A stretch of 64,000 bases of DNA from Escherichia coli. GTDB taxonomy: Bacteria; Pseudomonadota; Gammaproteobacteria; Enterobacterales; Enterobacteriaceae. The stretch's first letter is position 1; every line of letters starts with the position of its first letter. Positions 33,001 through 36,000 of the stretch are shown here, piece after piece. A program made the position numbers. The stretch lies in NCBI RefSeq assembly GCF_013122565.1, contig NZ_CP053258.1; one strand, given 5' to 3'.

Positions 33001-36000
33001 TAAACCGAGCGGGCGCAAAGTAGCGGTAACGCGCGGGTATCACTCGTTTGCATATTTCCCCCGTTCAGTTTTGCAGGTGAGTTTTGAACAAATGTATTTC
33101 TGCTTTTAATTTGTTCATAACCTTAGGTGGACATTGCACATATTTCCGACGAATAGATCACAATTTATGCTATTTTGATTTTCACGGTTGCGTTTGTTCA
33201 TGCTCGTAGAGTCAAACTGTGGTTGCCATCACAGATATAAATGCGCAAGAACTGAACAATTGCATTAAAGATTTAAATATGTTCAAAGTGAAGAATGAAT
33301 TATGACAATCAACGATTCGGTAATTTCAGAACAGGGAATGTGTGAAGAAGAACAGGTCGCGCGGATCGCGTGGTTTTACTACCACGACGGGCTGACCCAG
33401 AGTGAGATCAGCGATCGTCTCGGCCTGACCCGTTTGAAAGTGTCGCGATTACTGGAGAAAGGGCATCAGTCCGGCATTATTCGCGTGCAGATTAATTCTC
33501 GCTTTGAAGGCTGTCTGGAATATGAAACACAATTACGTCGTCAGTTTTCGCTGCAACATGTCCGGGTGATCCCTGGGCTTGCGGATGCTGATGTCGGCGG
33601 GCGACTGGGGATAGGCGCGGCGCATATGTTGATGAGTTTACTTCAACCACAAGAGATGCTGGCGATTGGTTTTGGCGAGGCAACTATGAATACGCTGCAA
33701 CGCTTAAGTGGTTTTATTTCGTCACAGCAAATTCGCCTGGTCACGCTCTCCGGTGGCGTCGGTTCTTATATGACGGGTATCGGGCAGCTTAACGCGGCGT
33801 GCAGTGTGAATATTATTCCGGCTCCGTTGCGGGCATCCTCCGCTGACATTGCGCGTACGCTAAAAAATGAAAATTGCGTCAAAGATGTTCTGCTAGCCGC
33901 GCAAGCAGCGGATGTGGCGATTGTCGGCATTGGTGCTGTGAGTCAACAGGACGATGCGACAATCATTCGCTCCGGTTATATCAGCCAGGGCGAACAGTTA
34001 ATGATTGGCCGAAAAGGGGCGGTTGGCGACATTTTAGGCTACTTTTTTGATGCAAAAGGTGACGTTGTCACGGATATCAAAATACATAACGAACTGATTG
34101 GCTTACCTTTAAGCGCGCTGAAGACCATACCCGTCCGGGTTGGCGTGGCAGGGGGAGAAAATAAAGCCGAAGCAATTGCCGCTGCAATGAAAGGCGGTTA
34201 TATCAACGCACTGGTTACCGATCAGGACACAGCAGCGGCGATTTTACGTAGTTAAATTTGCATGACCTTATTACCGGGAATGATGGAGAACGTATAGAGG
34301 AACAGGCAGAACGCATAAGCCGAGGATAATCTAATGGCTCGACTCTTTACCCCTTCAGAATCAAAGTACTACCTGATGGCGCTGGATGCAGGCACCGGAA
34401 GTATTCGGGCTGTGATATTCGACCTGGAAGGCAATCAAATAGCAGTGGGACAGGCGGAGTGGCGGCATCTGGCAGTACCGGACGTTCCTGGTTCTATGGA
34501 ATTTGATCTCAACAAAAACTGGCAACTGGCGTGTGAGTGTATGCGCCAGGCGTTGCACAACGCCGGCATAGCCCCGGAGTATATCGCTGCCGTTTCGGCA
34601 TGTTCGATGCGTGAAGGCATTGTTTTATATAACAATGAAGGAACACCGATCTGGGCCTGCGCCAATGTGGATGCCAGAGCGGCGCGTGAAGTTAGCGAAC
34701 TTAAAGAACTGCACAACAATACCTTTGAAAACGAAGTTTATCGCGCGACCGGACAAACACTGGCTTTAAGTGCCATCCCCAGATTACTTTGGCTGGCGCA
34801 CCATCGTTCCGATATTTACCGTCAGGCATCAACCATCACCATGATCAGCGACTGGCTGGCCTATATGCTCAGCGGCGAACTTGCGGTGGATCCCTCTAAC
34901 GCTGGCACCACGGGACTTCTTGATCTAACCATCCGTGACTGGAAACCTGCATTGCTGGATATGGCTGGCCTGCGTGCCGATATTCTTTCTCCTGTCAAAG
35001 AAACCGGCACATTGCTGGGCGTGGTAAGTTCACAAGCGGCGGAACTCTGCGGTCTGAAGGTGGGCACTCCGGTGGTCGTTGGAGGAGGCGACGTGCAGCT
35101 TGGTTGCCTGGGGTTAGGCGTTGTGCGTCCGGCACAAACCGCGGTTCTTGGCGGCACATTCTGGCAGCAAGTTGTAAATTTAGCCGCGCCGGTGACAGAC
35201 CCAGAAATGAACGTGCGCGTTAATCCCCATGTTATTCCTGGCATGGTACAAGCTGAATCTATAAGCTTTTTTACCGGACTCACCATGCGCTGGTTCCGCG
35301 ATGCTTTCTGTGCCGAAGAAAAACTGATTGCCGAACGTTTAGGCATCGACACCTATACGCTGCTGGAAGAGATGGCCAGTCGGGTGCCGCCTGGGTCGTG
35401 GGGCGTAATGCCGATCTTCTCCGACAGAATGCGCTTTAAAACCTGGTATCACGCTGCGCCTTCCTTTATTAACTTGTCCATTGACCCGGATAAATGTAAC
35501 AAAGCGACATTGTTCCGTGCGCTGGAAGAAAATGCGGCGATTGTATCAGCGTGTAACTTGCAGCAAATTGCTGATTTTTCGAATATTCATCCTTCATCGT
35601 TAGTCTTTGCAGGCGGAGGTTCAAAAGGGAAATTATGGAGTCAAATTCTCGCTGATGTCTCGGGATTACCCGTCAATATTCCGGTGGTCAAAGAAGCCAC
35701 TGCATTAGGATGTGCCATTGCAGCTGGCGTCGGTGCCGGAATTTTTTCATCAATGGCAGAAACCGGAGAACGCCTGGTTCGCTGGGAACGGACGCACACA
35801 CCAGACCCGGAAAAGCATGAACTTTATCAGGATTCACGCGATAAGTGGCAGGCAGTTTATCAGGATCAGCTGGGGCTGGTTGATCATGGACTGACGACGT
35901 CGTTATGGAAAGCGCCTGGGTTATAGTTTCATTGACAGCCACATCATGATGACCGTGGCTGTTAGTTTTTGAGTATAGTTATTCTTATTTCCCTTCTTTT

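Follow-up and report, generated by a model that had tools for sequence, protein, structure and literature searches.

The spacer between the divergent genes lsrA and lsrR very probably comprises two back-to-back cAMP-CRP-dependent promoters, both shut by LsrR bound to palindromic operators of a single type, designated O_A and O_R. The spacer lies within a 64-kb stretch of Escherichia coli DNA (the window) and belongs to the well-studied lsr switch controlling AI-2 uptake, a textbook system that is already known and is carried here by a wild E. coli strain. Our result is a modest refinement of that system, namely a proposed DeoR-type operator in three phased copies. E. coli uses the lsr switch as its native circuit for AI-2 quorum sensing, and synthetic biology has adopted it. 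Defining its operator clearly would tell those who engineer promoters which bases to retain and which to alter, would explain the derepression of lsrA by mutations 140 bp upstream, and would allow published promoter-up mutations to be read more simply, leaving the picture of the locus unchanged.

The locus is composed of the spacer and two divergent gene sets:
33054-33301, no strand: lsrA-lsrR divergent intergenic control region, 248 bp, 35% G+C, from ORFs and RefSeq annotation
31518-33053, minus strand: lsrA, 511 aa, first gene of lsrACDBFG (NCBIfam equivalog, 953 bits, cut-off 586)
27254-31524, minus strand: further lsr genes, without internal stops, each above its equivalog cut-off
33302-34255, plus strand: lsrR, 317 aa, SorC/DeoR-subfamily repressor (NCBIfam LsrR equivalog, 617 bits)
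34334-35926, plus strand: lsrK, 530 aa, AI-2 kinase (NCBIfam equivalog, 999 bits)

The spacer had been delimited in a preliminary description as the lsr divergent control region, and its bounds are exact, ending at the lsrA start codon on one side (minus strand, 33053-33051) and at the lsrR start codon on the other (33302). It is identical to K-12 MG1655 at 247 of 248 bases, and the sole difference (33244, C here and A in K-12) falls outside every named element. Given this identity, published K-12 results apply to the spacer here. All eight lsr ORFs (lsrA, C, D, B, F, G, R and K) are uninterrupted and score above the NCBIfam equivalog cut-offs, bearing out the earlier statement that the lsrACDBFG-lsrRK system is complete, and the RefSeq annotation of a locus identical to positions 32800-33600 (801 bases compared) agrees with these calls. 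LsrR is ~99% identical to PDB entries 4L5I and 4GO1, and the divergent lsrA/lsrR arrangement is present in all of 25 enterobacterial loci as well as in Salmonella and Klebsiella. The K-12 lsr literature shows LsrR to bind two boxes in the spacer and to be released by phospho-AI-2, and reports cAMP-CRP as a required activator with sites inside the lsrA-lsrR spacer.

Two exact copies of one palindrome are present in the spacer:
33085-33117, no strand: O_A, exact match to TGAACA-N21-TGTTCA, 33 bp, proposed LsrR tetramer operator
33253-33285, no strand: O_R, second exact TGAACA-N21-TGTTCA, coinciding with the published p-lsrR box

O_A reads TGAACAAAT-N15-ATTTGTTCA, and its arms extend to 13 nt with 92% complementarity (33081-33093 and 33109-33121). 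It is the 33-bp palindrome of the preliminary description, real but lying one base to the right of the 33084-33116 assigned there. That inventory of the control region was right in its two motifs, this palindrome and one CRP site, and overlooked O_R, a third operator copy (O_M) and a second CRP site (CRPI). As direct repeats, O_R and O_A share 76% identity. They are the only matches to TGAACA-N21-TGTTCA in the window, even with one mismatch allowed. At local composition the exact motif is expected 2.4e-5 times per 248 bp and is seen twice, and two exact copies arose in none of 200,000 Markov simulations, establishing the motifs and their improbability by chance.

Conservation, examined in an alignment of 15 enterobacterial representatives from about a dozen genera, is likewise established, the invariant columns being the operator arms, two CRP sites and a TAnnnT hexamer. 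Across the 25 enterobacterial loci, Salmonella and Klebsiella, the O_A arms are exact and both palindromes keep the exact N21 spacing, with spacer interiors that vary. All genera share the O_R core, GAACA/GTTCA, and some show one or two changes in the arms. Beyond the enterobacteria, a Bacillus lsrR homologue carries AGAACA-N21-TGTTCT beside its divergent ABC ATPase gene. No TGAACA-N21-TGTTCA was found near the lsrR homologue on Sinorhizobium meliloti pSymB, so the motif is not universal among LsrR-like regulators.

By analogy with DeoR, each palindrome is most likely an LsrR tetramer operator, whose arms would serve as the recognition elements. The earlier suggestion that O_A is a candidate LsrR operator is thus strengthened by the invariance of its arms across genera, by a twin that corresponds to the p-lsrR box, and by likeness to the DeoR operator. 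Our literature searches, which drew on later papers quoting the primary studies, returned nothing useful on a palindromic LsrR operator or on mapped lsr promoters. In these later papers there is no mention of the LsrR boxes as TGAACA-N21-TGTTCA palindromes or of a third site.

The published LsrR boxes bear on the two palindromes differently. The p-lsrR box is placed at -237 to -197 from the lsrA ATG, corresponding to 33250-33290 here, with AACAAT and AAGATTTAA as its critical sequences; for the p-lsrA box these are AAAACT and AAAACTGAA (Xue 2009 as quoted in PMC8487509). All four, together with TAATGCA, are present at the published offsets. O_R lies inside the p-lsrR box and contains both of its critical sequences. 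Error-prone-PCR mutants with raised expression in the lsrA direction cluster at positions equivalent to 33261-33267, inside O_R, and restoring the p-lsrR box abolished the gain in expression in 12 of 14 such clones. The lsrA-side sequences are located elsewhere:
33064-33085, minus strand: p-lsrA-box critical sequences, AAAACTGAA at 33064-33072 and AAAACT at 33080-33085, in the lsrA leader and adjoining O_A

The comparison with published LsrR sequences that had been proposed as a check finds the twin O_R inside its box and the p-lsrA-box sequences adjoining O_A with a one-base overlap. By the refuting condition set in the preliminary description, this location is in partial conflict with O_A as the lsrA-side operator. 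It also lends some weight to an alternative that we consider unlikely, in which LsrR recognises the published A/T-tract boxes and O_A is not the lsrA-side operator, its symmetry being incidental or otherwise used. According to the same group, LsrR also binds unrelated A/T-rich sequences at other promoters; in PMC8487509, LsrR sites are characterised as A/T-rich, with homology among them not needed, and a 2026 paper still works with the motif NNNTTTTNN. Set against this, conservation of the sequences at 33064-33085 is confined to Escherichia, whereas the O_A arms do not vary in about a dozen genera, and the lsrR-side box coincides with the sister palindrome. Positions 33064-33085 moreover hold the lsrA ribosome-binding site, so mutations there may have other effects.

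The relationship of LsrR to Bacillus subtilis DeoR also argues for the palindromes rather than the A/T tracts. The palindrome arms match the DeoR operator, and the two proteins are related (8R7Y, 1.7e-28), with LsrR scoring 160 bits, below the cut-off, against the NCBIfam DeoR model. The DNA-binding domain of LsrR aligns with the DeoR segment SRPTVSRLL, in which both arginines are conserved; judging from this alignment, we take them to be the base-contacting R34/R39 of DeoR, on the assumption that chain and native numbering differ by 5 residues. The DeoR operator, ATTGAACA...TATGTTCAA, is bound only whole, by a tetramer, and LsrR tetramers have been reported. A PDB sequence search yielded no LsrR-DNA complex.

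Two CRP sites and two predicted -10 hexamers complete the promoter architecture:
33218-33233, no strand: CRPII, TGTGGTTGCCATCACA, centre 33225.5 at -41.5 from the predicted lsrR start, 9/10 match to TGTGA-N6-TCACA
33147-33162, minus strand: CRPI, TGTGATCTATTCGTCG, centre 33154.5 at -41.5 from the predicted lsrA start
33120-33125, minus strand: predicted lsrA -10 hexamer TAAGGT, predicted start near 33113
33255-33260, plus strand: candidate lsrR -10 hexamer AACAAT, predicted start near 33267, inside the O_R left arm

CRPII is the CRP site originally noticed, and both its position and its near-consensus character hold. CRP-like matches with at most one mismatch are expected ~0.008 times per 248 bp at local composition, and the 64-kb window contains five against 2.0 expected. 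The offset of CRPII is conserved in most genera examined: in Escherichia, Citrobacter, Salmonella, Superficieibacter, Mangrovibacter and Edwardsiella the site keeps a constant distance of 35 bp from O_R, on its left, and Kluyvera, Klebsiella and Buttiauxella have a weak version of it. Its letters TG...TCAC are invariant in the alignment. We equate it with the 'CRPII' of the Bentley laboratory because of the order of boxes in their figure legend, which carries no coordinates. CRPI has a single strong half-site, matching the consensus at 5/5 positions in one half and 1/5 in the other, and its GATCAC (33156-33161) is invariant in 15/15 representatives, Buttiauxella and Klebsiella among them. The octamer TGTGCAAT, which the lsr literature describes as 'very close to CRPI', is 6 bp away from it. 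The centres of the two CRP sites are 71 bp apart.

A sigma-70 consensus scan of the region found no promoter able to stand alone, in keeping with dependence on an activator, and the promoter assignments consequently rest on conservation and CRP geometry. In the lsrA -10 candidate, the T, A and final T of TAnnnT (A33120, T33124 and A33125 on the plus strand) are invariant and lie at a fixed distance from CRPI and O_A. The lsrR hexamer is the weakest assignment, made by geometry alone in that it puts CRPII at -41.5, and the same AACAAT is one of the published critical LsrR-box sequences. From these start sites, we infer that CRPI would serve lsrA and that CRPII probably activates lsrR rather than lsrA. 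The converse pairings, CRPII with lsrA (class II, start 33184) and CRPI with lsrR (start 33196), were rejected, as neither start has a plausible -10 hexamer upstream.

In the proposed mechanism, one LsrR tetramer (a dimer of dimers) would occupy each 33-bp site, by analogy with B. subtilis DeoR, with the outer DNA-binding domains reading the TGAACA arms and the inner ones resting on the AT-rich spacer. At the predicted lsrA promoter O_A would span -4 to +29, and at the predicted lsrR promoter O_R would span -14 to +19; since the two operators cover both predicted promoters, bound LsrR would block RNA polymerase at each. LsrR is released by phospho-AI-2, the product of LsrK. CRP at CRPI would activate lsrA and CRP at CRPII would activate lsrR, both in a class II arrangement at -41.5.

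Promoters regulated by CytR characteristically carry two CRP sites, typically ~53 bp apart. The presence of two CRP sites in one spacer, and a CytR site proposed in the literature near CRPI, would favour a second alternative, that the palindromes are bound not by LsrR but by another protein, such as CytR with CRP or an unidentified factor. We consider it very improbable. Outside Escherichia the proposed octamer (33133-33140) is not maintained, and a simpler explanation of its activating mutations is that they improve a -10 hexamer. A CytR/CRP co-regulated promoter was accordingly rejected, given the unconserved octamer among the 15 representatives and the distance between CRP centres. The palindromes also accompany lsrR in Enterobacterales and at a Bacillus locus, and O_R coincides with an experimentally defined LsrR box. 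The least credible alternative is that O_A works as RNA, a leader hairpin of lsrA with an attenuating or stabilising effect on the transcript. A transcript of the whole of O_A would fold to -9.3 kcal/mol (z-score -3.8), but the predicted lsrA start (33113) is in the right arm, which would leave the hairpin incompletely transcribed. The fold of O_R is on a par with shuffled sequence (z -0.14), the arms are invariant with no compensatory changes in the alignment, no T run follows O_A and no terminator is called, and an Rfam search of the region matched no family.

Besides the two proposed LsrR operators O_A and O_R, a third copy is positioned midway:
33168-33200, no strand: O_M, degenerate third copy, exactly 83 bp from O_A and between the two CRP sites

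A position weight matrix (PWM) trained on O_A and O_R only was scanned over each ~6-kb locus of the 15 representatives, and the +83 position is among the top non-training matches in 13 of them, ranking third in 12 and fourth in this window. O_M scores 24 bits in Salmonella and -5 bits in E. coli, relative to a background mean of -60 (sd 14). Its right arm is nearly invariant among the 15 representatives; in Escherichia this arm, TGTTCA, is intact and the left one has decayed to TGCTAT. At -5 bits, the E. coli O_M may be non-functional.

Centre to centre, the operators are separated by 83 and 85 bp, 168 bp from O_A to O_R, corresponding to ~8 helical turns per step. Such spacing would place LsrR tetramers on one face of the DNA, where they would probably cooperate. 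A strict phasing requirement is weakened by Buttiauxella, whose O_A-to-O_R spacing of 163 bp is about half a turn off phase, and by one strain with a 122-bp insertion that still carries the locus. We tentatively advance a fuller reading, plausible but somewhat less likely to be right than wrong as a whole. The true LsrR operator would be the DeoR-type TGAACA-N21-TGTTCA and not the A/T-rich boxes, present ancestrally in three copies 83 bp (8 turns) apart and interleaved with two class II CRP sites. Tetramers on one face would cooperate or loop the DNA, closing both promoters, and the middle operator would be decaying in Escherichia and Citrobacter.

The lsr control region resembles several known systems in part. 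Like class II CRP-dependent promoters, both CRP sites are centred at -41.5 from the predicted starts, with no usable -35; it differs in that the lsr starts are predicted only and CRPI has a single good half-site. The LsrR element shares with the B. subtilis DeoR operator the outer inverted arms TGAACA/TGTTCA and an AT-rich spacer. From arm to arm, however, the DeoR operator measures 36 bp (outer G and C 33 bp apart) and the LsrR element 33 bp (30 bp). The E. coli LsrR sites lack a counterpart of the inner TTCAA that the DeoR operator carries at 11 bp from the outer arm; their inner positions read TATTT, AAAAG, CATTA and TAAAT. The PWM holds only weak information at inner positions 9, 13 and 14, and some O_R sites of Citrobacter and Serratia have an inner TGTTCA at 13 bp rather than 11; fitting the 11-bp DeoR half-site geometry to the LsrR sites gave no fit. 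The single DeoR operator moreover lies at -60 to -21, in contrast to the two or three lsr copies over the predicted transcription starts.

The gal OE/OI and lac O1-O3 operators are examples of multi-operator, helically phased repression. The lsr operators are similarly placed integral helical turns apart (83, 85 and 168 bp), and, as in such systems, mutations in the distal O_R raise the output of the lsrA promoter ~140 bp away. By this analogy LsrR-mediated looping is a candidate only, the 163-bp spacing of Buttiauxella being out of phase. A further counterpart is the lsr control region of Salmonella enterica, which shares the gene order, the two exact palindromes, the CRPI half-site and CRPII. 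Its O_A-to-O_R spacing is 166 bp, compared with 168 bp here, and its middle site is nearly intact (TGAATA...TGTTCA, 24 bits), in contrast to the decayed left arm in Escherichia.

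The divergent control region between lsrA and lsrR contains two exact 33-bp TGAACA-N21-TGTTCA palindromes (O_A and O_R, on the lsrA and lsrR sides), a decayed third copy (O_M) and two CRP boxes, named CRPI and CRPII in the Bentley-lab literature. Its preliminary delimitation as 33054-33301 coincides with the spacer between the two start codons.

Elements of the lsrA-lsrR locus
31518-33053, minus strand: lsrA ORF, 511 aa
33054-33301: lsrA-lsrR spacer, 248 bp, the exact gap between the two start codons
33085-33117: O_A, inverted repeat TGAACAAAT...ATTTGTTCA, next to lsrA
33147-33162: CRPI, minus strand TGTGATCTATTCGTCG, one excellent half-site
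33168-33200: O_M, decayed third copy, starting exactly 83 bp after O_A
33218-33233: CRPII candidate, TGTGGTTGCCATCACA
33253-33285: O_R, TGAACAATTGCATTAAAGATTTAAATATGTTCA, next to lsrR; 76% identical to O_A, 168 bp away (repeat search)
33302-34255, plus strand: lsrR ORF, 317 aa

The locus is the textbook lsr switch, near-identical to the K-12 sequence. An 801-base query across the spacer (32800-33600) matches, at 100% identity, a wild E. coli chromosome with the annotation lsrG-F-B-D-C-A / lsrR-K and is found in 4,203 of 5,426 complete E. coli genomes. Compared with K-12 MG1655, a single base of the spacer (33244) is changed; it lies outside all elements described here, so K-12 experiments from the literature are directly applicable. 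Each of the eight lsr ORFs in the window is unbroken and scores above curated NCBIfam equivalog cut-offs, in agreement with the complete gene set of the preliminary description. The lsrA-lsrR junction has no match in 1,223 of the 5,426 genomes, and one listed genome (hit H12) retains 78 bases of lsrA adjoining an autotransporter gene; lsr loss or truncation is thus common within E. coli. Downstream of lsrK, an intact 1806-aa ORF (36457-41877) is annotated by RefSeq as an ECSE_1600-family autotransporter in the genome that matches (strain PapM-32-1). Its K-12 counterpart is a pseudogene. An exact 9-nt direct repeat, CATATTTCC, at 33051-33059 and 33139-33147, 88 bp apart, overlaps the lsrA start codon with one copy and adjoins CRPI with the other, probably by chance.

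Within the 64-kb window, O_A and O_R are the only TGAACA-N21-TGTTCA matches, even at one mismatch. At local composition, ~2.4e-5 exact matches are expected per 248 bp, and 0 of 200,000 simulated spacers carried two copies. A lone TTTGTTCAT from the repeat search (33193-33201) is the right arm of O_M. The operator centres (33101, 33184 and 33269) are separated by 83 and 85 bp, each interval corresponding to about eight helical turns. The preliminary description had reported a CRP-like site at 33218-33233, where TGTGGTTGCCATCACA is present, and one 33-bp palindrome as candidate LsrR operator; the palindrome is real, one base to the right of the 33084-33116 assigned to it. That observation is confirmed and its interpretation essentially right, if incomplete, omitting the O_R twin, O_M and CRPI.

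Comparison across genera revealed a conserved architecture. Scanning a single genome of each species gave 25 loci from enterobacteria (Escherichia species, Citrobacter, Kluyvera, Superficieibacter, Izhakiella, a Serratia, Mangrovibacter, Buttiauxella and Edwardsiella), with lsrA divergent in all 25; Salmonella and Klebsiella lsr loci were taken from a plasmid collection. Both palindromes occur in every locus compared, with an arm gap of exactly 21 bp, freely varying spacer interiors and a start-to-start distance of 163-168 bp. The O_A arms are exact throughout, while those of O_R carry one or two changes in some genera. In a 15-sequence alignment, the invariant columns are the O_A arms (33085-33092 and 33112-33117), A33120, T33124, A33125, GATCAC (33156-33161), TG (33218-33219), TCAC (33229-33232) and the O_R core (GAACA 33254-33258 and GTTCA 33281-33285), and the O_M right arm is nearly invariant. 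The block O_A/-10/CRPI/O_M is gap-free across genera, as is CRPII/O_R, with length variation confined to the stretch between O_M and CRPII. A weight matrix trained on O_A and O_R only, scored over ~6-kb loci of 15 representatives, places the +83 position (O_M) among the best non-training matches in 13 (third in 12, fourth in the window); against a background mean of -60 (sd 14), O_M reaches 24 bits in Salmonella, lies at 21-23 in Serratia and Mangrovibacter, and drops to about 0 in Citrobacter and to -5 in E. coli.

In Buttiauxella sp. A111 (L025, about 2274-2395), a ~122-bp insertion separates the CRPI half-site from the lsrR-side elements, widens the spacing of O_A and O_R from 163 to 285 bp and includes AAGCTCCAGGGGATTCAC, which resembles an ERIC/IRU repeat. 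The spacer of Izhakiella australiensis (Erwiniaceae; L012, 2249-2504) is near-identical to the Citrobacter type, sharing its 168-bp spacing and operator spacers, which points to horizontal transfer, or else to mislabelling or contamination of the contig.

Mapping of published boxes bears on which bases LsrR reads. As quoted by PMC8487509, Xue 2009 describes two LsrR-bound boxes, with critical sequences AACAAT and AAGATTTAA for the p-lsrR box, as well as AAAACT and AAAACTGAA for the p-lsrA box. The p-lsrR box, placed at -237 to -197 from the lsrA ATG in later literature, maps to 33250-33290 and takes in all of O_R, including both critical sequences. When clones with stronger lsrA-direction expression were selected after error-prone PCR, most of the mutations lay at -214 to -208 (33261-33267, within O_R), and 12 of 14 clones lost the gain once the p-lsrR box was restored. 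The critical sequences of the p-lsrA box correspond to 33064-33072 and 33080-33085, adjoining O_A with one base shared; outside Escherichia this segment is not conserved, and it carries the lsrA ribosome-binding site as well. The palindromes as LsrR operators therefore fit the experiments well at the lsrR side but only loosely at the lsrA side. The main rival, that LsrR recognises A/T tracts rather than arms, is unlikely. The authors (PMC8487509) consider LsrR sites to be rich in A/T and to share no homology, the motif NNNTTTTNN is still in use in a 2026 paper, and our literature search found LsrR linked to no palindromic operator.

CRP matches of TGTGGTTGCCATCACA quality are expected about 0.008 times per 248 bp. 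The published order is p-lsrR box, CRPII, CRPI, p-lsrA box, from which the site at 33218-33233 would be CRPII, coordinates being absent from the paper. CRPI is reported very close to the octamer TGTGCAAT, which is the minus strand of 33133-33140, and was assigned to 33147-33162 because of this closeness. A sigma-70 scan detected no stand-alone promoter in the spacer. From the invariant TAnnnT (TAAGGT, minus strand 33120-33125), lsrA is predicted to start near 33113, so that CRPI falls exactly at -41.5 and O_A spans -4 to +29; with AACAAT (33255-33260) as candidate -10, lsrR would start near 33267, CRPII would likewise fall exactly at -41.5 and O_R would span -14 to +19. Elsewhere in the window, TGTGA-N6-TCACA occurs with one mismatch at 3172-3187, 12155-12170, 23722-23737 and 26294-26309 (5 matches in the whole window versus 2.0 expected), some of which may genuinely serve nearby genes as CRP sites.

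Binding of the palindromes by another protein, such as the proposed CytR, is very improbable, as its octamer is not conserved outside Escherichia. Two published promoter-up mutations, TGTGCAAT to TGTACAAT (G at 33137) and an adjacent C to T, convert TGCAAT to TACAAT and TGTAAT, both closer to the -10 consensus TATAAT. A new or improved -10, with a predicted start near 33126 upstream of O_A, would explain a stronger, still LsrR-controlled promoter more simply than a CytR site. An RNA hairpin is scarcely credible: O_R folds like shuffled sequence, the arms lack compensatory changes, the predicted lsrA start falls within an arm, and neither a terminator nor an Rfam family was matched.

With the palindromes as LsrR operators, absence of phospho-AI-2 would leave LsrR tetramers, putatively one per palindrome, on O_A and O_R, and on O_M where intact, blocking both promoters. 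Given their helical phasing, the tetramers would share one DNA face, and cooperation, possibly via looping, is suggested because O_R mutations 140 bp upstream derepress lsrA. Once LsrK phosphorylates imported AI-2, LsrR would leave the DNA, and CRP at the predicted -41.5 positions could activate each promoter when cAMP is high. Repression, release and the need for CRP in lsr expression are established by the literature.

The modestly new content is comparative only: it defines the operator as DeoR-type and describes a layout of three helically phased sites, of which the middle one is decaying in Escherichia and Citrobacter. A homologue of lsrR from Bacillus (39% identity) is accompanied by AGAACA-N21-TGTTCT, which adjoins its divergent ABC ATPase gene; nothing comparable was found in Sinorhizobium. 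Bacillus sp. N5-665 (L031, 2422-2449) also carries a distinct palindrome of 28 bp, TAAACA-N16-TGTTTA, immediately upstream of its lsrR homologue. The LsrR of the window shares ~99% identity with the crystallised protein and belongs, like its homologue B. subtilis DeoR, to the SorC/DeoR subfamily; DeoR binds only its complete operator, as a tetramer (dimer of dimers), with R34 and R39 contacting bases of the TTGAACA part. In the DNA-binding domain alignment, both arginines of DeoR SRPTVSRLL are conserved in LsrR, corresponding to R34/R39 only if chain and native numbering are offset by 5 residues. By this analogy, LsrR probably reads the palindrome arms. The outer arms recur in the DeoR operator, ATTGAACAAAATTTCAATTACCAATTTACATATGTTCAA; the distance between them is 3 bp less in the LsrR element, which in E. 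coli also lacks the inner TTCAA-type half-sites.
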